Position numbers and translations under genes: made by a program
Shown: one piece after another, positions 13,135 to 37,481 of the stretch
Layout of the letters: each line of letters opens with the position of its first letter
Position numbering within the stretch: the stretch's first letter is position 1
Origin: Pontiella sp.
GTDB lineage: Bacteria; Verrucomicrobiota; Kiritimatiellia; Kiritimatiellales; Pontiellaceae
Direction of reading: 5' to 3'
Assembly (NCBI GenBank): GCA_050290185.1
Contig: JBNKHE010000002.1
Coordinates: 288,001 to 352,000, forward strand
DNA length: 64,000 nt
The notes under the pieces: generated by a model
Databases searched by the model: none
Seen by the model: the letters and a program-made list of their open reading frames with translations, nothing else
Told to the model about the DNA's origin: nothing

Positions 13135-15502
13135 CATCGTCCTCGCCGCGTTCAACGCCCGCTATGCGCACAGCTCCTTCGGCGCGCGCTACCTGCTCGC
13201 CAACCTTGGCGAAATGCAGGAACAGTCCGAACTGTTGGAGTTCGATCTCGCCGTCCAGCCGCGCATCGCCGTAGAAAAGATCCTCGCGCACCACCCGCGC
13301 ATCGTCGGTATCGGATGCTACATCTGGAACATTGACCTCGCCACCCAAGTCGCCGCCCTGCTTAAAGCCATCCGGCCCGACATCGCCCTCGTTCTCGGCG
13401 GCCCCGAAATCAGCTACGAAACCGAGCAGCAGGAAATCTTCACCTATGCCGACCACGTCATCTGCGGCGAAGGCGAAATCGAATTCCCGAAACTGTGCTC
13501 TGCTCTTTTATGCAGGCGGAACGCCTGCAATACAACGGATGTACCGCAGGCGTCCCGCCTGCCCCGCATCATCCACGCCGAGCCGGTGGATGTATCGCAG
13601 ATCGAGATGCCGTACGAGCTCTATACCGACGAAGACATCGCCCATCGAGCCATCTATGTCGAGGCCTCGCGCGGGTGCCCGTTCCGGTGCGAATACTGCA
13701 TGTCGTCGCTCGATCCGTGCGTGCGCTATTTCCCGAAGGAGCGGTTTCTCGCCGCGATGGGAAAACTGCTCGACCGTGGGGCCCGCACGTTCAAGTTTGT
13801 CGACCGCAGCTTTAATATCGACATCCCCTTCGCGCTGGAAATCCTCGCCTTTTTCCGCGAGCGCTACACGCCGGACATGATGCTCCATTTCGAAGTCATT
13901 CCCAGCCACCTGCCGGACGAACTGATGAATGCCGTCAAGGAATGCTCGCCCGGCATGCTCCAGTTCGAGATCGGCATCCAGACCTTCAACGAAGAGGTCG
14001 CCCACCGCATCCAGCGCCCGCTCAACATCGCAAGGGTCGAAGCCAACATGCGGCGGTTGCGCGCGGAAACGGGCGTGCATATCCATGCCGACCTGATTGC
14101 CGGCTTGCCCGGCGAAGATATGGAAAGCTTTGAAGACGGCTTCAACCGGCTGCTGTCGCTCAATCCACAGGAGATCCAGCTCGGCATTTTGAAGCGCCTG
14201 CGCGGTGCGCCGATCGACCGGCATACCCGTGACTGGGACATGGTCTACAGTCCGCACGCGCCCTACGAAATCCTGCAAACCAGTCTGATCTCCTTCGAGC
14301 AGATGCAACGCATCCAGCGTTTCGCGCGCTACTGGAACCTCACCGTCAACAACGGTCAATTCATCCAAACCGCCCCGCTGATTTGGCAAACCGTACCGCA
14401 GGCGTCCCGCCTGCCCGAGGAAGCCGTACCGACAGGTGATTGCGCGCAAGCAAGCAATCTTCGCCTGCCTCCCGAAACAACCGGATTCAATCCGCACCGG
14501 GAAATTCACCAAACTCGACGCAAACACTATCCCCACTGGACGCAGGATGATTCCACCTATTTCGTGACATTCCGGCTGGCTGATTCGATACCGCAGTCCC
14601 GCATAAAGGAATACGAGGAATTGCGCCGCAAATGGGAAGAACATCATCAACCGCCCTATTCGGAACAGGAACAGATCCGGTTTAACGAGCTGTTCTCAAA
14701 CCGAATCAATGAATGGCTGGATGAAGGCGCCGGCTCCTGCTGCCTGCGTGATCCGGAAATTTCGCGGATGGTGGCCGATACGCTGCGTCACTTCGATGGC
14801 GACCGCTACGACCTGGATGAATGGGTGGTCATGCCCAACCATGTTCATCTGCTGGTACGTCCCCGGGCAGGGCATGAACTTCCGGACATCCTGCATTCTT
14901 GGAAATCGTTTTCAGCCCACGCTATAAACACTTCTCTGAAGCGAACCGGAAAACTCTGGCAGACCGAAAGCTACGACCACATCGTTCGAAACATGGAAGA
15001 ACTGCACCGGATTCGAAGCTATATCCGGAAAAACCCGGAAAAGGCCGGCATTCGTGTTTCCCATGCGGGAAGCAGGCGGGACGCCTGCGATACAGCCCCC
15101 GAGCTGCAGGACGCCCCAGCCGTACCGACAGGTGATTGCGCGCAAGCAAGCAATCTCCGCCTGCCAGAGCAAACCGTACCGCAGGCGTCCCGCCTGCCAC
15201 AGGAGTCATCCCCATTCGCGGCCTTCATGCAGTGGAGCGACTGGCTCTATGCCCAAACCAACACCACCGGTAACCTGCACATGCTGCGGCTCGCCAAATT
15301 GCTGATGCAGTTTCTGACCAAGGAAAAAGGATTGGATCCACAAGCCGTGGCCGAAGCACTCTGGAACGACTACCAGCGTGGAAACCGCCCCGATATTCCC
15401 GGCTTCCTGAAAAAGTTTGGGTTTGGACAAGGCCGGCAAGATGCCGGCGGTACCAACGAACCACAGGCGTCTCGTTTGCCTCGTCAGTCGCGGCACTTGT
15501 AA
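13127..15502 (+). CDS. B12-binding radical SAM protein (DUF4080-type) interrupted in frame by a RAYT transposase domain and REP-derived peptides
   Basis: YIWN...VLGGPEISY...GEGE (B12-binding); YVEASRGCPFRCEYC; FKFVDRSFN; HADLIAGLPGE; continuous frame through the insert. Confidence 0.9.
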   Translation: MADIVLAAFNARYAHSSFGARYLLANLGEMQEQSELLEFDLAVQPRIAVEKILAHHPRIVGIGCYIWNIDLATQVAALLKAIRPDIALVLGGPEISYETEQQEIFTYADHVICGEGEIEFPKLCSALLCRRNACNTTDVPQASRLPRIIHAEPVDVSQIEMPYELYTDEDIAHRAIYVEASRGCPFRCEYCMSSLDPCVRYFPKERFLAAMGKLLDRGARTFKFVDRSFNIDIPFALEILAFFRERYTPDMMLHFEVIPSHLPDELMNAVKECSPGMLQFEIGIQTFNEEVAHRIQRPLNIARVEANMRRLRAETGVHIHADLIAGLPGEDMESFEDGFNRLLSLNPQEIQLGILKRLRGAPIDRHTRDWDMVYSPHAPYEILQTSLISFEQMQRIQRFARYWNLTVNNGQFIQTAPLIWQTVPQASRLPEEAVPTGDCAQASNLRLPPETTGFNPHREIHQTRRKHYPHWTQDDSTYFVTFRLADSIPQSRIKEYEELRRKWEEHHQPPYSEQEQIRFNELFSNRINEWLDEGAGSCCLRDPEISRMVADTLRHFDGDRYDLDEWVVMPNHVHLLVRPRAGHELPDILHSWKSFSAHAINTSLKRTGKLWQTESYDHIVRNMEELHRIRSYIRKNPEKAGIRVSHAGSRRDACDTAPELQDAPAVPTGDCAQASNLRLPEQTVPQASRLPQESSPFAAFMQWSDWLYAQTNTTGNLHMLRLAKLLMQFLTKEKGLDPQAVAEALWNDYQRGNRPDIPGFLKKFGFGQGRQDAGGTNEPQASRLPRQSRHL
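13512..13562. repeat. Intragenic inverted REP doublet (REPIN-like)
   Basis: GCAGGCGGAACGCCTGCAATAC-AACGGAT-GTACCGCAGGCGTCCCGCCTGC; read in frame as CRRNACNTTDVPQASRL. Confidence 0.85.
14386..15198 (+). mobile_element. REP-flanked RAYT (TnpA-REP, IS200-like Y1 HUH) cassette inserted in frame
   Basis: Domain ~14480-15049: YPHW, YFVTFRLADS, WVVMPNHVHLL (HUH, 14840-14848), WKSFSA, LWQTESYDHIVRN, YIRKNP (Tyr 15020); perfect 30-bp direct repeats at 14386-14415 and 15169-15198; long REP variants at 14426-14469 and 15122-15165; inverted REP at 15072-15093. Confidence 0.9.
15431..15480. repeat. Degenerate REP doublet in the 3' end of the radical SAM gene
   Basis: GGCCGGCAAGATGCCGGCGGTAC (reverse complement GTACCGCCGGCATCTTGCCGGCC) then CCACAGGCGTCTCGTTTGCC, again encoding PQASRL. 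Confidence 0.7.
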
Positions 15503-24608: not shown

Positions 24609-27600
24609 CTAGTGCAAAGAAACCTCGACCCTGTAGAAACAGGCCGGTAGCTGGTTGGTATCCGAAAGCATGGTGCCGGGACCGGTACCGGGGAAGAAGG
24701 ACTGGCCTTGAACCGGTTGCCACCCCGTCGAATTCGCCAGGTTCGTGCTCCAGTAAAGCGTATAGAAGCGCGCCGGGGAGCCGGTAAAGGTAAAGGTGTT
24801 GCTGGAACCCAGGATCGCTTGTTCAATCCGGAAGCGATCGCCCGGATTCTGCGGATCGGTATCGGCCACATATTCGGCGTAGGCGTTCGCGCCATCCCCG
24901 TCGACATCGAGCGCGGCATCGGCCGAATTGGTTGGGTTCAGGCTGTGGGCAACCTCCCACCCATCGGGCAACCCATCCGAATCCGAATCGGGATTCAGCG
25001 GGTCCAACGTTGCGGAGAGCGCCAGACTGTGCCCCGTGCCGGCGGAGATGGCTATTGCATGGGTCGCGGAGGCAGGAATCGTGGTCTGGCCAGTGGTATC
25101 ATCTCCCCATCCGACCACCGAACCATCGGCCAGCAGCGCCAGATTGTGATAAAGTCCGGAGGCGATAGCCACCGCGTTGGTCACGGACGCAGGCACAGTG
25201 GTTTGACCGTAGGAGTTGTCTCCCCATGCAATGACCGAGCCGTCGGCCAGCAGCGCCAGACTGTGAAATAATCCGGCGGAGATGGCTTCCGCGTTGGTCA
25301 CGGAGGCGGGAATCGCGGTTTGCCCAAAATCATGCCGGCCCCATCCGATCACCGAGCCGTCGGCCAGCAGCGCCAGACTGTGTCCTGATCCGGCGGCGAT
25401 GGACACCGCGTTGGTCACGGAGGCGGGAACTGTGGTCTGGCCATAGCCATTATATCCCCATCCGATCACCGAACCGTCGGCCAGCAGCGCCAGACTGTGA
25501 CTTCCTCCGGAGGTAATGGCCACCACGTTGGTTGCTGAAGCGGGCACATTGGTCTGGCCATTGAAACCATATCCCCATGCGATCACCGAGCCGTCGGCCA
25601 GCAGTGCCAGACTGTGAAGTCCTCCAGCGGCGATGGCCACTGCGTTGCTCACGGAGGAGGGGACGTTGGTTTGACCGTTATCATTCCAACCCCATGCGAT
25701 CACAGAGCCGTCGGTCAGCAGCGCCAGGTTGTGATTCCATCCCGCGGCAACGGCGACCGCATGGGTTGCGGAGACGGGAATCGTGATCTGGCCAGCGCTA
25801 TTATCGCCCCATGCAATGATCTCCGGCATCTCAAGCAGGTCGTCAAGGCCATCGGAATCGCTATCTGCCTTGAGTGGATTCGTTCCAAGGTAATGGATCT
25901 CCATGTAGTCCGTAATCGTGTCGGAATCGCTGTCGGCATTCAGCGGATCGGTTCCGTATTTGTTCACCTCATCGATATCACTTAGCCCATCTGAATCGGA
26001 ATCCAGCCCGACGTTGCTTACCAGAGGATCGAGTCCGGAATTAACTTCCTGGCCGTCGAGCAACCCATCGGAATCCGAATCGGAATTCAGCGGATTGGTT
26101 CCAACCGTGTTGACTTCCGCGCCGTCGGTTAAGCCATCTAAATCAGAATCAGAATCCAGCGGATCGGTTCCGTAGGTGTTCACCTCATCCAGATCACTTA
26201 GTCCATCCGAATCGGAATCCAGCCCGACGTTGCTTACCGTTGGATCGAGTCCGAGATTGATTTCCTGTGCATCGGACAATCCATCGGAATCCGTATCCTC
26301 CTTCAGCGGATTGGTTCCATACGTGTTGACCTCCGCGCCATCGGACAACCCATCGGAATCCGAATCGGGATTCATCGGATCGGTACCGTAGGCGTTAACC
26401 TCTTCGCCATCCAGCAATCCATCTGAATCCATATCGGCATTCAGTGGATCGAATGTTGCGGAGAGCGTCAAGCAATGGAATTGTCCAGCGGAGATCTCCC
26501 GTGCATTGGTAACGGAGACGGGTACATTGGTTTGGCCATAATCGTTCCGTCCCCAACCGATCACCGAACGGTCAGCCAGCAATGCCAGACTGTAATTTCC
26601 TCCGGCGGCAACGGCCACCGCATTGGTCACAGAAGCAGGAGACGTGTTCTCGCCATACCCATTATAACCCCATCCGATGATCGAACCATCGGCCCGCAGC
26701 GCCAGACTATGATTCTTTCCCGCGGCAATGACCACCGCGTTGGTTGCGGAGACGGGGACGGTGCTTTCGCCATTGGCATTAAAACCCCATCCGATCACCG
26801 ATCCATCGTCCAGCAGCGCCGCGCTGTGATATCCGCCAGCGGCGATGGCCACGGCGTTAGTCACGAAATCGGGCACATTGGTCTGGCTCTGGGAACCACC
26901 TCCCCATCCGATCACCGAGCCGTCGGCCAGCAACGCCAGACTGTGATATCCTCCGGCGGAAATGGCCACTGCATTGGTCACGGCGGCGGGGACGTTGGTC
27001 TGCCCATCATTATTTCGACCCCATCCAACCACCGAGCCGTCGGGCAGCAGCGCCAGGTTGTGATACCATCCGGCGGCAATAGCTACTGCGTTGGTCACCG
27101 AGGAGGGCATATTGGTCTGTCCATAGGTGTCATCTCCCCATGCGGCCACCGAACCGTCGGCCAGCAGCGCCAGACTGTGAGAAAATCCGGCGGCAATGGT
27201 CACCGCGTTGGTCACGGAGGAGGGGACGTTGGTCTCGCCATGACTATTGTTGCCCCATGCAATCAGTTGCGGCAACTCAAGCTGATCGTCAAGGCCATCG
27301 GAATCGCTGTCTACCTTGAGTGGATTGGTTCCAAGATTATGGATCTCTATGTAGTCCGTAATAGTGTCGCCATCACTATCGCGCTTCAATGGATTGGTTC
27401 CATAGGTATTAATTTCCGAGTCATCGTCCAACCCATCCGAATCCGTATCGGGATTCGCCGGATCGGTGCCAAACGTGTTGACTTCCGTACCATCAAGCAA
27501 TCCATCCGAATCGGAATCGACATTCAATGGATCGGTTCCGTATGTGTTCATCTCATCAATATCACTCAATCCATCGGAATCGGAATCCTGCCCGACGTTG

Positions 27601-30600
27601 CTTACCGTTGGATCAAGTCCGGCATTGACTTCCTGAGCATCGGACAATCCATCGGAATCCGTATCCTCCTTCAGCGGATTGGTTCCATATGTATTGACCT
27701 CCGCGCCATCGGACAACCCATCGGAATCCGAATCGGGATTCAGCGGATCGGTTCCATAGGTGTTGACTTCCGCGCCATCGAGCAACCCATCCGAATCCGA
27801 ATCGGAATCCAGTGGGTCCTGCGTTACGGAAAGCGTCAAGCTATGGTAGCTTCCGGCAGCGATGGCTATTGCATGCGGTACAGCAGAGGGCCCCGTGATC
27901 TGGCCATAGTTATCCTTTCCCCATCCGATCACCGAGCCGTCGCCCAGCAGAGCCAGACTATGCGTTTCCCCGGCAGCAATGGCCACCGCATTGGTCACGG
28001 ACGCGGGCACCGTGGTCTGGCCATCGGAACCATATCCCCATGCGATGACCGATCCATTGGACAGCAGCGCCAGGCTGTGCAGTTCTCCGGCAGCAATGGC
28101 CACCGCATTGGTCACGGACGCGGGCACCGTGGTCTGGCCGTTGAAACCATATCCCCATGCAACCACCGTGCCGTTGGACAGCAGAGCCAGGCTGTGAACT
28201 CTTCCGGCGGCGACAGCCACTGCATTGGTCACCGAGGAGGGCACCGTGGCCTGACCATAGTCACTCTGCCCCCATCCAACCACCGAGCCGTTGGACAGCA
28301 GCGCAAGACTATGATATCCACCGGCGGCAATAGCCACCGCATGGGTCACCGAGGCGGGCGCACTGATCTGGCCATAGGTATTATCTCCCCACCCAACCAC
28401 CGAACCGTCGGCCCGTAACGCCAGACCGTGAAAAGATCCGGAGGAGATGGCCACCACATTCGTCGCAGACGCGGGTATGCCTGCATTATCGCCCCATCCG
28501 ATTAGCGACCCATCGGACAGCAGTGCCAGACTTTGATCTCCTCCGGCGGAGATGGACACCGCGTTGGTCACGGAGGCAGGCACATTGAGCTGGCCTCTCC
28601 CATTGATACCGGCTCCAACCACCTGCGGCATCTCAAACTGATCGTCTATTCCATCGGAATCGGAGTCTGCGCTGAGTGGATTCGTTCCCAGATAATGAAT
28701 CTCCATATAGTCTGTAATGGTGTCCCCATCACTATCACGATTCGCAGGATTGGTTCCGTAGGTATTCACCTCATCCAGATCACTCAGCCCATCCGAATCC
28801 GAATCCGCCTTCAGCGGATTGCTTCCGTAGGTGTTCACCTCATCCAGATCACTTAGCCCATCCGAGTCCGAATCCGCCTTCAGTGGATTCGTTCCATACG
28901 TGTTGACTTCCGCACCATCGGACAATCCATCCGAATCCGAATCGGCATTCAGCGGATCCGTTCCAACCGTGTTGACTTCCGTGCCATCGAGCAATCCATC
29001 CGAATCAGAATCAGAATTAAGCGGATCGGTTTCGTAACTGCTCACCTCGTCAATATCACTCAGGCCATCCGAATCCGAATCCAGCCCGACGTTGCTTACC
29101 GTTGGATCAAGCCCGGCATTAACTTCCTGACCATCAAGCAACCCATCCGAATCCGTATCGGGATTCAGCGGATCCAGCGCTATGTTGAGCATCAGGTTGT
29201 GATAGCCTCCGGCGGAGATGCTCATCGCATTGATCACGGAGGCGGGGATGTTGGTTTGGCCATAGTAATTCCATCCCCATCCAAGTACCGAGCCGTCGTC
29301 CAGTAAAGCCAGACTGTGAACGGCTCCGGCGGAGATGGCTGCCCCATTTGTCACCGAGAGCGGGACCGAAGTCTGACCTTGATTATTCTGTCCCCATCCG
29401 ATTACCGAACCGTCGGCCAGCAGCGTCAGATTGTGATTTAATCCTGCGGAGATCGCCACTGCATTGGTCACGGACCCGGGCACAGCGGTTTGACCGTAGG
29501 AGTTGTCTCCCCATGCAATGACCGAGCCGTCGGCCTGTAACGCAAGACTGTGTGACAATCCGGCGGAGATCGCCACGACGTTGGTCACGGAGGAGGGAAT
29601 CGTGGTTTGGCCATAATTATTCCGTCCCCATCCGATCACCGAACCGTTGGACAGCAGCGCAAGACTGTGATTTCCGCCGCCAGCGATGGCCACCGCGTTG
29701 GTCACGGAGGCGGGAACCGTGGTCTGGCCGTCGCCATTCGATCCCCATCCGATCACCGAGCCGTCGCTCAGCAGGGCAAGACTGTGATATCCTCCGGCAG
29801 CGATGTCCACAGCATTGGTCACGGAGGAGGGGACGTTGGTCTCGCCATGACTATTGCTGCCCCATGCAATCACCTGCGGCAACTCAAGCTGATCGTCAAG
29901 GCCATCGGAATCGCTGTCTGCAAGCAACGGGTCCGTTCCTAGATAATGGACCTCCATATAGTCCGTAAGCGTGTCGGAATCACTGTCGCGCTTCAACGGA
30001 TCGGTTTCATAGGTGTTCACCTCGTCTATGTCGGACAGTCCATCCGAATCCGAATCCAGCCCAAGGTTGCTGACGGCCGGGTCCAGCCCATTATCCAGTT
30101 CCTTCTGATTGGTAATTCCATCCCCGTCCATGTCGGCATCCGGATTCAGCGCGGCCACTTCCGATGTACCCAGTGCCCGATTGTAGAAGCGCAGCTCCCT
30201 CAGAGCACCCTTCAGGTAGCCATCCACACCCCACGCCGAGCGGCCCAGAAAATTATTCGTGCGGGTGATGTAAGCCGGTAGGGCCAGCGTGGTACTCGCT
30301 CCTATGTTTACCCCGTTTCGGTAGAGCGATATCTGACCGCTGGATGCTTGCACCAACGCGATATGATCCCATTGCCCCTGTACATAAAAGCTGGGCACGT
30401 CCCATCCCCCGGTGCCGGGACGCACTTCATAAATCAGTGAATTGTTGAATCCCGTATGCCCTAAGAGGATATTGTTGTTGTCCGGCCCGAGGCTGAAATC
30501 AAACACGCGGGAATAGTTCTCATCGAACGAATCATAGCGCACCCAGCCCGTGAAACTGAAACCATTGGTGAAGTTGTCGAACCCATCCGGCAGATCGATC

Positions 30601-30812
30601 CAGGCATTGGTGGTCCCATCAAAGACGGCCGCGCCGTTGGTGAAGGTCACGCCCGACATCACGGTTCCATCCATGCCGTTGCCCGAAGCATCCGAGGCAT
30701 CCGTAGCCAACGGGTAATGGGCGATTAGGTCCAGATTCAGATCCACTGCTGCGCTTGCCGCTCCGCACAGAACAAGTGCGAGCGAAGCCGTATGTATAAA
30801 GTTTTTACTCAC
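24609..30812 (-). CDS. Giant secreted protein: LamG, four RCC1/BLIP-II-like propellers interleaved with DSDSDGL (TSP3-like) repeats, and an FYR C-terminal domain
   Basis: GTG 30812 gives a signal peptide; 27 copies (6+7+7+7) of a ~39-aa WG..GQ..P..VTNAVAIAAG..HSLALL.DG repeat; ends FYRVEVSLH. Confidence 0.88.
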   Translation of the reverse strand: MSKNFIHTASLALVLCGAASAAVDLNLDLIAHYPLATDASDASGNGMDGTVMSGVTFTNGAAVFDGTTNAWIDLPDGFDNFTNGFSFTGWVRYDSFDENYSRVFDFSLGPDNNNILLGHTGFNNSLIYEVRPGTGGWDVPSFYVQGQWDHIALVQASSGQISLYRNGVNIGASTTLALPAYITRTNNFLGRSAWGVDGYLKGALRELRFYNRALGTSEVAALNPDADMDGDGITNQKELDNGLDPAVSNLGLDSDSDGLSDIDEVNTYETDPLKRDSDSDTLTDYMEVHYLGTDPLLADSDSDGLDDQLELPQVIAWGSNSHGETNVPSSVTNAVDIAAGGYHSLALLSDGSVIGWGSNGDGQTTVPASVTNAVAIAGGGNHSLALLSNGSVIGWGRNNYGQTTIPSSVTNVVAISAGLSHSLALQADGSVIAWGDNSYGQTAVPGSVTNAVAISAGLNHNLTLLADGSVIGWGQNNQGQTSVPLSVTNGAAISAGAVHSLALLDDGSVLGWGWNYYGQTNIPASVINAMSISAGGYHNLMLNIALDPLNPDTDSDGLLDGQEVNAGLDPTVSNVGLDSDSDGLSDIDEVSSYETDPLNSDSDSDGLLDGTEVNTVGTDPLNADSDSDGLSDGAEVNTYGTNPLKADSDSDGLSDLDEVNTYGSNPLKADSDSDGLSDLDEVNTYGTNPANRDSDGDTITDYMEIHYLGTNPLSADSDSDGIDDQFEMPQVVGAGINGRGQLNVPASVTNAVSISAGGDQSLALLSDGSLIGWGDNAGIPASATNVVAISSGSFHGLALRADGSVVGWGDNTYGQISAPASVTHAVAIAAGGYHSLALLSNGSVVGWGQSDYGQATVPSSVTNAVAVAAGRVHSLALLSNGTVVAWGYGFNGQTTVPASVTNAVAIAAGELHSLALLSNGSVIAWGYGSDGQTTVPASVTNAVAIAAGETHSLALLGDGSVIGWGKDNYGQITGPSAVPHAIAIAAGSYHSLTLSVTQDPLDSDSDSDGLLDGAEVNTYGTDPLNPDSDSDGLSDGAEVNTYGTNPLKEDTDSDGLSDAQEVNAGLDPTVSNVGQDSDSDGLSDIDEMNTYGTDPLNVDSDSDGLLDGTEVNTFGTDPANPDTDSDGLDDDSEINTYGTNPLKRDSDGDTITDYIEIHNLGTNPLKVDSDSDGLDDQLELPQLIAWGNNSHGETNVPSSVTNAVTIAAGFSHSLALLADGSVAAWGDDTYGQTNMPSSVTNAVAIAAGWYHNLALLPDGSVVGWGRNNDGQTNVPAAVTNAVAISAGGYHSLALLADGSVIGWGGGSQSQTNVPDFVTNAVAIAAGGYHSAALLDDGSVIGWGFNANGESTVPVSATNAVVIAAGKNHSLALRADGSIIGWGYNGYGENTSPASVTNAVAVAAGGNYSLALLADRSVIGWGRNDYGQTNVPVSVTNAREISAGQFHCLTLSATFDPLNADMDSDGLLDGEEVNAYGTDPMNPDSDSDGLSDGAEVNTYGTNPLKEDTDSDGLSDAQEINLGLDPTVSNVGLDSDSDGLSDLDEVNTYGTDPLDSDSDLDGLTDGAEVNTVGTNPLNSDSDSDGLLDGQEVNSGLDPLVSNVGLDSDSDGLSDIDEVNKYGTDPLNADSDSDTITDYMEIHYLGTNPLKADSDSDGLDDLLEMPEIIAWGDNSAGQITIPVSATHAVAVAAGWNHNLALLTDGSVIAWGWNDNGQTNVPSSVSNAVAIAAGGLHSLALLADGSVIAWGYGFNGQTNVPASATNVVAITSGGSHSLALLADGSVIGWGYNGYGQTTVPASVTNAVSIAAGSGHSLALLADGSVIGWGRHDFGQTAIPASVTNAEAISAGLFHSLALLADGSVIAWGDNSYGQTTVPASVTNAVAIASGLYHNLALLADGSVVGWGDDTTGQTTIPASATHAIAISAGTGHSLALSATLDPLNPDSDSDGLPDGWEVAHSLNPTNSADAALDVDGDGANAYAEYVADTDPQNPGDRFRIEQAILGSSNTFTFTGSPARFYTLYWSTNLANSTGWQPVQGQSFFPGTGPGTMLSDTNQLPACFYRVEVSLH

Positions 30813-30956
30813 TTCAATTTCCCTTTCAATTCCGCTTGGAAAAGCATGTTCTATTCCTGTTTCCAGAAAATTAGCCATCAATAACGGTTCTGGATCGAAT
30901 GGCACCCAGTCAAGGCGTATTGAATGGATTTTCCAAGCATTCAGCTCCTCGTCCGG

Positions 30957-33336: not shown

Positions 33337-34158
33337 CTATTGTATGGCGGAGAGCTGGTTGAGCTGCAGGTTCAGGTCCTGCCAGAGGGTCGGGGTGGCG
33401 AACTGGGGATATTCACCCCCGTTATCGGACATTTCGAGCACCGTGACCCAATCCGACCCGGCGACACAAACGGCTTCGAGCCGGAAATCGTCGAGCACGC
33501 GCCGCGATGCCAACGTGATCTGATCACACTCGACGATCACCTGAACCACCTGGCGTTTGACCAGGCGCCCAACCTTTACATCAAAATTGGCGTCATCGAT
33601 CGAGGCCAGCTCGTTGCCCTTTTCATCCAGCCACATGATCTTGGCGTCTTTCAACTGCAGCCGGGTTTTATCATTAATGGCATACGGCGGGAAAACCGGG
33701 ATCGAATCGTCCGGCCCCTTTTGCACGGAATTCAACCCGACGGCAGCCCCCAGCCGGCGTCCGATGCCATGCAATACCAGCGGCTCCCAGTTTCCCGAGG
33801 TCGGCACCCGCTGAAAACGGATCTCAGCATTCTTCAGCCGCAGCTTCTTCACGAACGGTTTGTCGGAGGATAGAAAGGAAAGCCAGTTGAAGGAGATCTT
33901 CACATCCGGCATTTCAGCTCCCTGAATAAGCAGCCCTTTCAGCCGAATCCCCATCAAGGGTGTTGCTCCGCACTTTTCCAGCGAAACGGGCAACCGGGTA
34001 CCGTTGGAAATCTTGTCGGCAACCAGGGAACGAACGCCTTCCGTTCTGGAAATCAGATGGGCCCCGATGTAAAGAATAAGAAATACCAGCCCCCCGGTGA
34101 TCAGCCTGCGCTTTAGCCGCTTGTCCCCACCGCTCTTCGCTGACTTCTTTTTAGCCAT
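33337..34158 (-). CDS. Hypothetical membrane-anchored protein (AsmA-like N-terminus)
   Basis: Basic N-terminus, TM helix, beta-rich body; start overlaps the proC stop. Confidence 0.65.
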   Translation of the reverse strand: MAKKKSAKSGGDKRLKRRLITGGLVFLILYIGAHLISRTEGVRSLVADKISNGTRLPVSLEKCGATPLMGIRLKGLLIQGAEMPDVKISFNWLSFLSSDKPFVKKLRLKNAEIRFQRVPTSGNWEPLVLHGIGRRLGAAVGLNSVQKGPDDSIPVFPPYAINDKTRLQLKDAKIMWLDEKGNELASIDDANFDVKVGRLVKRQVVQVIVECDQITLASRRVLDDFRLEAVCVAGSDWVTVLEMSDNGGEYPQFATPTLWQDLNLQLNQLSAIQ

Positions 34159-34948
34159 CTGCCAGTTCCTTTGACCGTGCCTGCGCCGCCAAAAGCGCCG
34201 CAATAATGGAATCCTTAACGCCGCGCTCTTCCATGGTATTGATGGCCGCCGCGGTTGTACCGCCCTTGGAGGTGACCTTCTGGCGTAACGCTCCGGCCTC
34301 CTCGCCGGTTTCTTTCATCAGCTTTGCTGCTCCAATGACGGTGGCCAGTGCCAGCTCACGCGAAGTTCCCTCTGCAAGACCCATCTGATCCGCCGCCGCC
34401 AGCATGCTTTCGAGGAGGTAGAAGACATAGGCCGGACCGCTTCCGCTTAAAGCCGTAACCGCATCGATCTCCTCTTCCTTTACAATAACGGCCGCCCCGA
34501 CGGCACCCATCAGCTTTTCAGCAACGGCCAGATCGGGTTCAGTGGCGTATTCGCCGGCCGCGATTCCGGCCGCGCCTTCGCCCACCAAGGCGGGCGTATT
34601 GGGCATGACCCGCACCACGCGAATAGGCTTGCTGCCTGCAATCTTTTTGGAGGGGATGCCGGCCATGATGCTCACCACCAGCGCATCGGGCTGGAGTGCA
34701 CCGTCGATTTCCGGCCAGACGGAAGGAAAGATCTGCGGCTTGACGGAAAGCACCACCACATCAGACTGTGCGACTGCAGACGCGTTATCCAATGCGGTGC
34801 CTACGCCATATTTGCTCTTGAAATGACCCAGCCGCTCAGCGGATATATCCGTGACGCACACATCCGCAGCCTCGACTACACCATTTCCCACAATTCCCGC
34901 AACAATGGCCTCCGCCATGTTGCCCGCTCCGATAAAAGTAATATTCAT
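34151..34948 (-). CDS. proC: Pyrroline-5-carboxylate reductase
   Basis: FIGAGNMAEAI, SVKPQ, RVMPNTP, TALSGSGPAY, VTSKGGTT. Confidence 0.96.
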   Translation of the reverse strand: MNITFIGAGNMAEAIVAGIVGNGVVEAADVCVTDISAERLGHFKSKYGVGTALDNASAVAQSDVVVLSVKPQIFPSVWPEIDGALQPDALVVSIMAGIPSKKIAGSKPIRVVRVMPNTPALVGEGAAGIAAGEYATEPDLAVAEKLMGAVGAAVIVKEEEIDAVTALSGSGPAYVFYLLESMLAAADQMGLAEGTSRELALATVIGAAKLMKETGEEAGALRQKVTSKGGTTAAAINTMEERGVKDSIIAALLAAQARSKELADG

Positions 34949-34964
34949 TCTTCTTATTCCTAAT

Positions 34965-35389
34965 TTTTCACCACAGAGGACACAGAGAGGACTATATTTT
35001 GAGCCGTTTTATCCCATCAACTAACCGTTCAACATTGAAGTTGATCAACAATCCCGTTCCGATCCCTGATATTTTCATATACGTCAAAGTCTGGGCAGTA
35101 TGAATTCCCTTTAACTCCTCCACCGATTTCAACTCAACGACCAGCCGGTCTTCGACGAGAAGGTCTATTCGATATCCGCAGTCCAGAGTCACATCCTTAT
35201 AGCCGACCGCCAATGGATGCTCCATCTTGAATACAATTCCCTGCAATTTAAGCTCATACGCCAATGCATGCAGATAAACAGATTCCAATAATCCCGGACC
35301 GAGAGTCCGATGCACCTCAATTGCACATCCTATCACTTTTGCTGTTAAGGGATCTTTCTCCATTTTCTCTGTGCCCTCTGTGGTGAAAA
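34965..35389. mobile_element. Inverted-repeat-bounded GxxExxY cassette between yggS and proC
   Basis: TTTTCACCACAGAGGACACAGAGA (34965-34988) and TCTCTGTGCCCTCTGTGGTGAAAA (35366-35389) are 23/24 complementary and lie 2-3 bp from the gene ends. Confidence 0.75.
34992..35363 (-). CDS. GxxExxY protein (PD-(D/E)XK nuclease fold)
   Basis: IGCAIEVHRTLGPGLLESVY, YRIDLLVE, VELKSV, HTAQTLTY, GLLINFN; ATG at 35363. Confidence 0.93.
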   Translation of the reverse strand: MEKDPLTAKVIGCAIEVHRTLGPGLLESVYLHALAYELKLQGIVFKMEHPLAVGYKDVTLDCGYRIDLLVEDRLVVELKSVEELKGIHTAQTLTYMKISGIGTGLLINFNVERLVDGIKRLKI

Positions 35390-36064
35390 TCACCTGCTAC
35401 CAAACAGATCGGTTCCGATGCGCACCCAGGTGCTACCCTCTTCGATAGCGATTTCGAGATCGTGCGACATGCCCATGGAAAGCTCGGGCAATGGTGTTCC
35501 GGTTTCTTCCTGCAGTCGATCACGCAGTTCGCGCAGCGCGACGAAATGGCTGCGCGCTTTTTCGGGGTCCGCAGTAAACGGCGGAATGGTCATCAAACCG
35601 TGCACTTCGACCTTTTGCATTTGGTTGGCGGCGTCAATCACCCCGGCTACCTCATCGGGCTTCATGCCCGACTTGGATGCCTCGCCGGAGACATTGACCT
35701 GCAGCAACACCGGCAGCGTCGTTCCGGCATGGGCATCCAGCGCCTGCAACAGCTTCAGCGAATCGACCGAATGCACCATTTGAAAAAGCTTTGCCGCGAT
35801 TTTGGCCTTGTTGCTCTGCAAGTGGCCGATCAGGTGCCATTCGAGCCCGGACGGGCACATCGGAATCTTGGCTTGCGCCTCCTGCACCTTGTTTTCGCCA
35901 AACAACCGCAACCCGCATCCGGCGGCTTCGCGCACCGCTTCCGGGGGCTTGGTTTTCGACACCGCCAGCAAGCGCACGCTGTCGCGCGTCCGACCCGCCT
36001 TTTCGCAGGCCGCCATGATTCGGTTTTCGACGGCTTCCAATCGTTCTAAAAATGATTCTTCCAT
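35390..36064 (-). CDS. yggS: PLP homeostasis protein YggS/PROSC
   Basis: LAVSKT, FGENKVQE, WHLIGHLQSNK, QVNVSGEASKSG, GLMTIPP, LSMGMSHD, VRIGT.LFG. Confidence 0.95.
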   Translation of the reverse strand: MEESFLERLEAVENRIMAACEKAGRTRDSVRLLAVSKTKPPEAVREAAGCGLRLFGENKVQEAQAKIPMCPSGLEWHLIGHLQSNKAKIAAKLFQMVHSVDSLKLLQALDAHAGTTLPVLLQVNVSGEASKSGMKPDEVAGVIDAANQMQKVEVHGLMTIPPFTADPEKARSHFVALRELRDRLQEETGTPLPELSMGMSHDLEIAIEEGSTWVRIGTDLFGSR

Positions 36065-36242
36065 ACCGCACAGCTCCGCATATTTGTTGAATTATTGCCT
36101 ACAGTAGACCACGTTTGTTCAGCATAGAAAATACCTGATTTCATTTGAGCCTTTTTGGCCCTCTATATATACTCCGCTCAAGTAAAGGTTGAGAGAAGAG
36201 AGAGCCTTCCAACCACTTCACATAAACCCAAAGGAGAGAGTT

Positions 36243-36779
36243 ATGAAGAAAGTCACTATGATCGCACTGGGATGCATGCTGGCCTCATCCGTATTGGCGG
36301 AAGAATCAAAACCATTTCAGGCCAGCCTGACCCCCGATATTGCCATTCATTCCAGTGACACCCGAATTAATGGCGTGGCACTCAGCATTTGGGGCGAAAA
36401 CCCGCAAAGCGCCTTTGCCCTTGGCTTCGTAAACGGATCCACCGGCGACAGCGTTGGCCTCTCCATTGGACTGGCAAACTATGCCGAAAACTACACCGGC
36501 GTTCAATGGGGTATTTTCAATTGCACCAGCGGATCCTTTGTTGGATGGCAGGACGGCTTTGTGAACTACGCCAACAACATGAAGGGGCTCCAATCGGGCG
36601 CCGTTAATATCGCCAACAACCTTACAGGTCTTCAATGGGGATGGGTGAACTATGCCAAGACCGTCGACAATGGCGTGCAGATTGGCCTCGTCAACCTTAT
36701 GCCGGAAAACGAATGGTTCAGCAACTTCCCGGATGAACTGGCGAAAGGAATGGTTATCGTCAACTGGCACTTCGAATAA
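36243..36779 (+). CDS. Exported LA_2272-family repeat protein
   Basis: Signal peptide; G(V/L)QxGxxN repeats. Confidence 0.75.
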   Translation: MKKVTMIALGCMLASSVLAEESKPFQASLTPDIAIHSSDTRINGVALSIWGENPQSAFALGFVNGSTGDSVGLSIGLANYAENYTGVQWGIFNCTSGSFVGWQDGFVNYANNMKGLQSGAVNIANNLTGLQWGWVNYAKTVDNGVQIGLVNLMPENEWFSNFPDELAKGMVIVNWHFE

Positions 36780-36868: not shown

Positions 36869-36968
36869 GGCCAGACAAGCAAGGTTCTAGTGCAGACGCT
36901 TTGAGATTGAGAAAGCTGCAGAATCCAATTAGTTTCCCATGCTCATCAAAACAACACGGAGAGCCCGC

Positions 36969-37481
36969 ATGAAATCGATTTTCGCCATACTCGCACTGAC
37001 CTGCAGCCTTGCGGCTTCGGCGTTTGCAGAAAGCAAACCGTTCCAGGCCAGCCTTACCCCCGAAATCGCAACCCAGCCCCGCTTTATGCTCATCGAAGGG
37101 TTATGCCTCAACATCTGGGGGGAAAACGAACAAAAGGCCATTGCTCTCGGTCTTGTTAACGGTTCAATTGGCGACAGTGTCGGCGTTTCGCTTGGCGGCT
37201 TGAACTATGCCGAAAACTACAAGGGCGTGCACCTCGGCCTCGTAAACTATACCAGCGGACAATTCAGCGGGGCACAGGCCGGCTGGATGATGGGTTTCAG
37301 CGCCATCAACTACGCCGGCTCGCTAACCGGCCTTCAGCTGGGACTCTTCAACTATGCCGAAACCGCCGAAAACGGCATCCAGATCGGCGTCATCAACATC
37401 ATCAACCAAACCGAAACCTGGTTCGACAACTTCCCGAACGAGGTTGCTCCGGGCATGATTCTAGTGAACTGGAGCCTGTAA
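36969..37481 (+). CDS. Exported LA_2272-family repeat protein (tandem paralog)
   Basis: Shares ESKPFQASLTP, IWGEN and WFxNFPxE..GM..VNW with the upstream gene. Confidence 0.75.
   Translation: MKSIFAILALTCSLAASAFAESKPFQASLTPEIATQPRFMLIEGLCLNIWGENEQKAIALGLVNGSIGDSVGVSLGGLNYAENYKGVHLGLVNYTSGQFSGAQAGWMMGFSAINYAGSLTGLQLGLFNYAETAENGIQIGVINIINQTETWFDNFPNEVAPGMILVNWSL

Follow-up and report, generated by a model that had tools for sequence, protein, structure and literature searches.

A 123-aa GxxExxY gene lying between yggS and proC in the window (the whole 64,000-nucleotide stretch of Pontiella sp. DNA analysed here) is enclosed by near-perfect inverted arms of short repeated units, and our comparison with relatives indicates that arm, gene and arm together form a unit which has very probably been mobile over evolutionary time. 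In its behaviour the unit differs from an active insertion sequence, and it moves rarely. The class of cassettes to which it belongs is very widespread and apparently undescribed; supplements and most subscription papers aside, we found no account of arm-flanked GxxExxY genes in the literature. The available portion of PMC3424549 gives PDDEXK_3 as a family of unknown function with multiple horizontal transfers, and that of 10.1101/2021.01.26.428298 mentions GxxExxY in passing. As to how the unit moves, we somewhat favour a reading in which its own predicted PD-(D/E)XK protein would bind the arm heptamers and cut the cassette ends while host functions carry out the insertion.

Anatomy of the cassette and its predicted nuclease

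The two arms, each 24 nt long and complementary at 23 of 24 positions (96%), lie 377 nt apart. Of the 15 inverted pairs in positions 34500-35900 theirs is the longest, the runner-up having 17 nt at 76%. Within each arm the CACAGAG unit occurs twice, at a 9-bp period (Table 1). Only 2 bp separate the 5' arm from the ATG of the gene and 3 bp its TAG from the 3' arm; the 5' arm starts at the very next base after the yggS stop (35390-35392), and 16 nt lie between the 3' arm and the ATG of proC. These positions confirm the sequence-only reading, which had described 24-bp inverted repeats of CACAGAG units at 2-3 bp from a 123-aa gene, the right one beginning directly behind the yggS stop. Its remark that no target-site duplication is evident at this copy also holds, none being visible on inspection of the flanks. 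The dispersed arm family, the 133-aa reading from a GTG start and the low G+C content of the gene are additions to that reading. The gene has a G+C content of 44% and the whole cassette of 44.7%, as against 58.5% in yggS and proC and 54.3% in the genome.

Table 1. Coordinates of the cassette and its host genes (window positions) and of related loci elsewhere (G000 is the window's genome)
Feature	Location	Strand	Evidence or remark
yggS, PLP homeostasis protein, upstream host gene	35390..36064	-	TIGR00044 E 2.3e-59; TGA stop abuts 5' arm
5' arm	35366..35389	-	T4 and two CACAGAG units, 9-bp period; purine-rich
GxxExxY / PDDEXK_3 gene, 123 aa, predicted PD-(D/E)XK nuclease	34992..35363	-	ATG 35363, TAG 34992; profile matches, alignment, model
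Candidate 10-codon N-terminal extension through 5' arm, GTG start overlapping yggS stop	35364..35393	-	ORF 34992-35393, 133 aa
3' arm, inverted copy of 5' arm (23/24)	34965..34988	-	inverted-pair search
16-nt spacer with AGGA-type proC ribosome-binding site, outside arms	34949..34964	-	sequence
proC, downstream host gene	34151..34948	-	TIGR00112 E 8.7e-77
Hairpins with GCG-rich palindrome	G000 C1:455286, C2:250397, C4:107864, C5:275648, C9:167361, C10:8948, C10:10141		
Four-helix-bundle loci	G000 C3:54983-81476 (four genes), C1:93903-94199; L279-L283		
Long-form loci with own arms	G000 C1:473869-474174; L301, L310, L312, L313		

A predictive search returned no promoter-like site upstream of the GxxExxY gene and no terminator at the arms, and an Rfam scan gave nothing at gathering level and one chance-level row. 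The 5' arm is likely to supply the ribosome-binding site of the gene as well. It is possible that the GTG start overlapping the yggS stop provides translational coupling, in which case the 133-aa reading would apply. One contig of sequencing run X1, possibly the source of the assembly itself, covers the stretch with zero differences. The contigs of four runs contained neither a near-identical empty allele nor a circle junction, the latter being the trace of excised circles that the sequence-only reading had proposed to look for. Joints skipping the cassette in these contigs were rejected as belonging to other organisms, the contigs differing at many letters.

The protein matches the full TIGR04256 model (E 1e-42, 145.2 bits against a cut-off of 35) and PF13366 (E 1e-40, 139.2 bits against 22). 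Apart from these PDDEXK_3/GxxExxY families no match was obtained in Pfam and NCBIfam, and none to a DDE, HUH, serine or tyrosine transposase. Its closest named homologue is a protein from a Pontiella MAG. Residues H18, G22, E27, Y30, D67, E77 and Q91 are invariant in an alignment of 72 sequences, and K79 and Y95 are kept in at least 90% of them; judged from this conservation the active site (E27, D67, E77, K79, Q91 and Y95) is intact. Nuclease activity and the substrate are predictions. The PD-(D/E)XK fold is predicted by an alignment-based model (pLDDT 96.8; folding of the single sequence reached only 33.7) whose top structural neighbours are all chains of this type, none of them clearly ahead, the best being Cas4 SSO0001 (Z 7.9, rmsd 4.9, 101 residues aligned) and BpuSI (Z 7.8, rmsd 2.6, 90 residues aligned). 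Foldseek gave nothing at E 0.001 or better, no solved relative was found by sequence, and the ESM Atlas returned GxxExxY clusters only. Weak RelE rows (E about 0.5) were dismissed. The predicted fold and the E...D...ExK...QxxxY layout are common to GxxExxY, Cas4 (SSO0001, Pcal_0546), lambda exonuclease, BpuSI and Hjc. However, the likeness to Cas4 and the other PD-(D/E)XK folds does not go beyond the Z given above, and GxxExxY lacks the conserved cysteines of the Fe-S cluster.

The gene is under purifying selection, with a dN/dS of about 0.1 in the two unsaturated pairs (0.09 with the copy at L243 and 0.10 with that at L161). It is also a recombinant across species: codons 83-123 are near the L243 gene and the earlier part is near that of L161, with a break near codon 89 that was reached in none of 5000 permutations.

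Arms, arm words and probable movement among relatives

The TIGR04256 family is present in 37 of the 41 genomes of the order, with 265 matches in total and up to 18 per genome. From the 150 matches that scored best among those listed we retrieved 130 loci, which yielded 127 complete genes, a sample biased to the short canonical form. With arms defined as an inverted match scoring at least 24 within 110 bp of the gene ends, 103 of the 127 genes have them, compared with 1 of 240 control genes; swapped arm pairs pass the same score in 6.5%. In other phyla, where 80 loci gave 75 complete rows, arms are found in 53 of the 75. Thus most homologues carry flanking repeats, the opposite of which the sequence-only reading had named as an outcome that would count against it. 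The arms are built of 2-4 units of a 7-mer with a period of 8-10 bp, and words of the window's class (CACAGAG or CACGAAG) occur in 53 of 55 typed rows from distant phyla. When arm type is placed on the protein tree, 29 changes are needed as compared with 86.7 after shuffling (0/200 shuffles), in agreement with the proposed co-variation of repeat type with protein clade. Since kin share labels, this clustering shows joint inheritance, and the agreement across phyla shows that it is long-lasting. Co-variation of arm and protein is expected of any co-inherited unit and is no proof of binding.

The 127 genes are spread over 69 junctions, and the flanking peptides include what we take to be housekeeping pairs such as trpE-trpG, guaA-carB, gatA-gatB and gyrB-gyrA. 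At 105 of 111 callable loci the gene is in sense to both neighbours, compared with 894 of 1782 host genes. The orientation was called by a hexamer model that placed 170 of 200 test ORFs in sense and 22 in antisense, leaving 8 undecided; an earlier test by open frames was uninformative. In a comparison made at shared junctions the cassettes are persistently low in G+C, at 44% as against 56%. A long form of about 250-280 aa, consisting of the GxxExxY domain and an extension and in some cases a second weak copy of the domain, has inverted arms of its own. Two tandem GxxExxY genes per locus are present at L103, where they belong to different clades, and at L177, where the arms are identical.

Evidence for movement comes from five junctions which, in different genomes, are occupied by clades that are unrelated (about 25-46% identity) and differ in their arm words. 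In addition, several clades with 79-93% identity occupy different junctions, and there the similarity stops, by eye, no more than a few bases from the outer ends of the arms. Clade replacement together with similarity ending at the arm tips indicates that arms and gene arrive together and that the moving unit is arm-gene-arm, which bears out the earlier proposal of a unit of about 425 bp at operon junctions.

The description of this unit as a mobile cassette stands in so far as it is an inserted unit and fails in so far as an active insertion sequence was implied. Of 81 cases with a shared junction, 71 have their nearest protein at that junction. Close paralogues are few: the best within-genome identity among the fetched genes is at most 0.62 in 29 of 30 genomes and 0.84 in one. 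Divergence at fourfold sites is higher in the cassette than in its flanks in 105 of 117 pairs (0.65 versus 0.49), and in none of the 117 is the cassette significantly younger, these pairs being all from different species and near saturation, with flanks that have codon bias. The silent-site result fits old vertical inheritance with many losses. Of the insertion-sequence criteria, terminal inverted repeats are present, whereas a recognised transposase and near-identical genomic copies are absent.

A search for target duplications gave at least 7 shared bases at 10 of 103 loci, the expectation being 5.3%. Of the three long cases two were set aside as direct copies of whole hairpins, leaving L045, where a 10-bp direct repeat adjoins both arms, as the one clean case in 103; most of the copies are, however, old. 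At the corresponding junction of the window's genome the 10-bp sequence is, approximately, single, and the genes overlap or nearly so; the L045 repeat is therefore a plausible, and the best, candidate for a target duplication. GxxExxY cassettes are absent from phage records (0/50,697) and nearly absent from plasmid records (only 8/72,556), so that neither accounts for transport between species, a point against movement driven by the nuclease.

Long residence with saturation of silent sites, purifying selection and the lack of copy bursts would also be expected of a long-established accessory gene that serves the host, for instance in defence or DNA repair, and is inherited vertically and often lost, the arms being autoregulatory operators or mRNA-stabilising hairpins. 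We consider this improbable. Such a gene does not explain 69 junctions for 127 genes, clade replacement at the same junction or the end of similarity at the arm tips; moreover its decay is frequent, its low G+C content persists, and PADLOC matched 0 families at E 0.01.

Decay at the yggS-proC junction and gene-less hairpins

We compared 62 yggS-proC junctions, drawn from 61 genomes within the family and the order, as the sequence-only reading had suggested in expectation of empty sites or hairpins only. An intact cassette is present at three of them, namely in the window, at L006 (72% protein identity) and at L012 (69%), and the three proteins form one clade (support 100/98). Three more are broken, by a nonsense mutation at L243, a frameshift at L253 and an internal deletion with both ends retained at L256. 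The gene is thus found at 6 of 62 junctions, which does not amount to the synteny and vertical inheritance across the family that the earlier reading had held to be damaging. Relics consisting of CACAGAG arms alone are seen at three junctions (L002, L245 and L259) and relics with other CAC- or CGC-type arms at nine. Twelve junctions are empty (at most 20 bp), with stop and start overlapping in five. Of the remainder, one (L021) has the 5' fragment of a different GxxExxY gene preceded by CACGAAT units, two have a four-helix-bundle gene (TIGR02436) flanked by short repeats, ten have 6-7-mer relics, and 19 are unclassified under the rules used. A further intact copy upstream of proC, with its 5' end cut, is present at L161 and lies outside this tally. 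At five of the yggS-proC junctions (L011, L241, L244, L247 and L261) there is a family of perfect palindromes of about 50 bp centred on CGATCG.

A 39-row tree of yggS and proC requires four changes for the five carriers that have enough sequence, and rejects their monophyly (AU p 6e-175). This excludes one recent gain, and an old gain with many losses remains compatible with it. In one pair high identity extends into the nearest codons of the flank. A full natural series is thus available at a single junction, from intact through nonsense, frameshift, internal deletion and hairpin to empty and replaced, and these alleles are ready-made substrates for a direct test. Comparison shows that the unit lies in sense orientation directly behind a stop codon within housekeeping operons, that a resident copy suffers nonsense, frameshift or internal deletion, becomes a gene-less hairpin and is lost, and that junctions are colonised, emptied and recolonised by unrelated versions. 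The window's genome presents the same picture at junctions that are occupied in relatives: some are empty with overlapping genes, some have a hairpin of the same type or a different one, and some have relics with gene fragments.

This series of invasion, decay and loss is one of several observations that would suit a homing-type drive, in which the nuclease cuts an allele that lacks the cassette or has only the hairpin and homologous recombination through the flanking genes copies the cassette in, new junctions being rare accidents. The nearest protein is mostly at the same junction, purifying selection acts at a fixed site, the window gene is a cross-species mosaic, and the ORF is flush with the inner arm ends, as if it interrupted a two-arm site. 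The pattern also matches that of rRNA homing endonucleases, for which the available part of 10.1101/2024.02.27.582315 describes a cycle of gain, decay and loss; there, too, a clade is tied to its site, moves ectopically on occasion and leaves remnants without an ORF. However, the cassette was younger than its flanks in none of the 117 pairs, and gene-less hairpins of the cognate type stay intact beside the intact gene in the window's genome. Homing cannot bring new arm types to a junction either, which has happened at five. As compared with the homing genes treated in that part, the cassette has no intron or intein host, carries terminal motif arms and shows no sign of recent sweeps. We therefore regard homing as unlikely.

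Hairpins of the cassette type are dispersed in the window's genome. The two-unit CACAGAG motif has 22 genomic copies, compared with 0-1 in three Markov-shuffled genomes; the window pair is the only near-perfect one that brackets a gene, and the other copies are short gene-less hairpins or single arms. One of them, a gene-less hairpin of the CACAGAG family on the minus strand, lies at the left edge of the window at about 1-55 (G000 C2:288055). In many gene-less hairpins a short GCG-rich palindrome interrupts the 3' arm at one and the same position (Table 1); it may be a second element or a means of escaping the nuclease.

It might be thought that the gene is a sessile enzyme that amplifies such hairpins genome-wide, in the manner of REPIN-RAYT systems. 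Genomes have about one GxxExxY gene for each arm type, no other CAC-type motif is as common as CACAGAG (23) in the window's genome, and one relative (G007) has 97 motif copies. However, hairpins at yggS-proC and other junctions grade into deletion relics that retain gene fragments, the window's genome has hairpin types without a resident gene, and 18 of 26 CACAGAG hairpins have no second match, their loop and flank being mostly unique. In the 97-copy genome the hairpin sits inside a longer repeat of about 125 bp with ends of its own, and the 12 GxxExxY loci retrieved from it (13 of 15 matches) are all without clear CACAGAG arms, one having mixed units. Amplification by a sessile enzyme is accordingly very improbable. 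The repeat itself (L344-L362) occurs in dozens of copies with imperfect inverted ends and a central CACAGAG hairpin, and looks like a MITE that captured a relic of the cassette.

Possible mechanism and likeness to known systems

The arms may act as binding arrays on duplex DNA or as a stem in RNA. Pairing of the arms in mRNA, which the sequence-only reading had raised, is permitted by the fold, as they pair in the minimum-energy and centroid RNA folds (z -3.66), and such pairing would be expected to hide the likely ribosome-binding site and lower expression. It shows no sign of selection, however: among sense-strand arm mismatches G-U (88) is not in excess of A-C (87). Spacer length agrees between the arms in 95%. 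Variable bases match the own partner arm at 0.55 and the arm of a relative at 0.49, in a comparison where arm core positions are partly fixed by the search pattern; the own arm is the better match in 76 versus 27 non-independent pairs and in 26 versus 15 disjoint pairs (p 0.12). Because word and spacing are kept and perfect pairing is not, protein-binding arrays on duplex DNA fit better than a selected stem.

Genes of another kind share the design of the cassette. Five strong four-helix-bundle (TIGR02436) genes in the window's genome lie, by eye, between mirrored arrays of short repeats, with arm scores of 18-31 that reach at least 24 in three of the five (Table 1). Each has its own word, of 7-10-mers, and one also gives a weak Avd match. 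Being without the nuclease fold and of the same design, these genes keep a shared outside mobiliser in play, and they provide a link to the ORF-bearing intervening sequences of 23S rRNA. The intervening sequence of Coxiella 23S rRNA, according to the available text of PMC4990558, has 428-444 nt and a terminal stem of 28 bp, carries tandem heptamers ahead of a four-helix-bundle ORF, and is excised by RNase III. It resembles the cassette in its length of about 430 nt, in a small ORF that fills the loop of a 24-28-bp stem with one mismatch, in heptamers before the start codon, and in the lack of a promoter and the decay of the ORF (same portion of the text). The cassette differs from rRNA intervening sequences in its position between protein genes rather than inside rRNA, and in a PD-(D/E)XK fold under purifying selection.

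It is conceivable, though distinctly unlikely, that the cassette is likewise an intervening sequence, of mRNA, whose arm stem is excised from the operon transcript by RNase III, the gene being cargo and the unit being moved by a host or trans factor shared with the four-helix-bundle cassettes. Besides the Coxiella anatomy, the predicted pairing, the strong sense orientation, the slightly better match of own arms, and the four-helix-bundle genes with mirrored arrays at yggS-proC and elsewhere in the window's genome are in line with it. Against it are the absence of a G-U excess on the sense strand, the catalytic residues and low dN/dS, which argue against an inert cargo, and an arm motif that follows the protein clade across phyla. 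The intervening-sequence, homing and accessory-gene readings are compatible with one another.

Mobilisation by Y1 transposases was also considered and rejected: the motif was present at none of 30 loci fetched of 39 matches in three genomes, and by eye at none of four in the window's own genome. A Y1_Tnp-like domain is located at 14804-15031 of the window in an open frame of 805 aa, with no CACAGAG arms nearby.

In layout the cassette is similar to an insertion sequence or TIRtron, in site fidelity to a homing gene and in anatomy to an rRNA intervening sequence, and it fails a defining test of each. In REPtrons (REPIN-RAYT) and TIRtrons (TIRYT), as far as the available parts of PMC3733652, PMC3116915 and 10.1101/279083 describe them, an enzyme gene likewise lies in inverted repeats that are also dispersed without a gene, and the repeat type follows the enzyme clade. 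Their enzymes, however, are HUH Y1 transposases in those accounts, which the cassette enzyme is not, and in contrast to REPs the cassette arms are arrays of direct heptamers that are not self-palindromic, while the cassette hairpins look like relics. Restriction-modification genes in inverted repeats with an 8-bp target duplication, described in the accessible part of PMC2853133, are like the cassette in being transposon-like and in having a restriction-fold nuclease and no transposase. Compared with the units of that account, the cassette has no methyltransferase, is a tenth of the size, has clade-specific motif arms, and belongs to a family that is multi-copy and specific to operon junctions. 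The minimal mobile elements of Neisseria share with the cassette a variable content between two conserved genes and cross-species recombination at the locus, but in the portion of PMC3787668 available they have neither cargo-tied terminal repeats nor a candidate enzyme of their own, both of which the cassette has.

Under the nuclease-driven reading that we somewhat favour, the cassette, without a promoter, would ride on the operon transcript, and its protein, which probably recognises the cassette ends, would read the arm motif on double-stranded DNA, as conservation of motif and spacing rather than of pairing suggests. Nicks at the arm tips would free the unit, and a staggered cut, consistent with the one 10-bp duplication seen, would admit it elsewhere. 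Host repair or recombination would then complete the insertion in sense orientation just behind the stop codon of a gene in a housekeeping operon, and exchange with same-junction alleles of related species may maintain purifying selection between the rare jumps. That the nuclease drives the movement is our inference, and it is weakened by a single clean duplication in 103, by the lack of a recent burst and by the four-helix-bundle genes of the same design. To our knowledge, PD-(D/E)XK enzymes do not act as strand-transfer transposases, which also counts against it.

If the protein does mobilise its own arms, this would be transposition chemistry without a DDE, HUH, serine or tyrosine enzyme. 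Tentatively, and with somewhat more doubt than confidence, we suggest that GxxExxY cassettes could be the smallest autonomous class of prokaryotic mobile elements, in which a restriction-fold nuclease of about 120 aa reads helically spaced heptamers at its own ends, excises itself and reinserts behind operon stops, each clade owning its arm word. Four-helix-bundle cassettes, including the ORF-bearing 23S intervening sequences, would be a sister class, and many intergenic hairpins of PVC, Bacteroidota and Deltaproteobacteria would be fossils. Should the protein act on its own arms in this way, the family would be a naturally occurring collection of small nucleases, each specific for a 7-bp target word that can be predicted. 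It would also explain where ORF-bearing rRNA intervening sequences came from, and likewise a large class of intergenic hairpins.

Two other features of the window may be mentioned. A protein of 2098 aa encoded at 24609-30905 consists of what we take to be RCC1-like blocks alternating with Asp-rich DSDSDG repeats behind a lectin-like N-terminus. At 36189-36779 and 36939-37481 are tandem paralogous genes whose products, secreted proteins without a Pfam match, contain short glycine-rich repeats.
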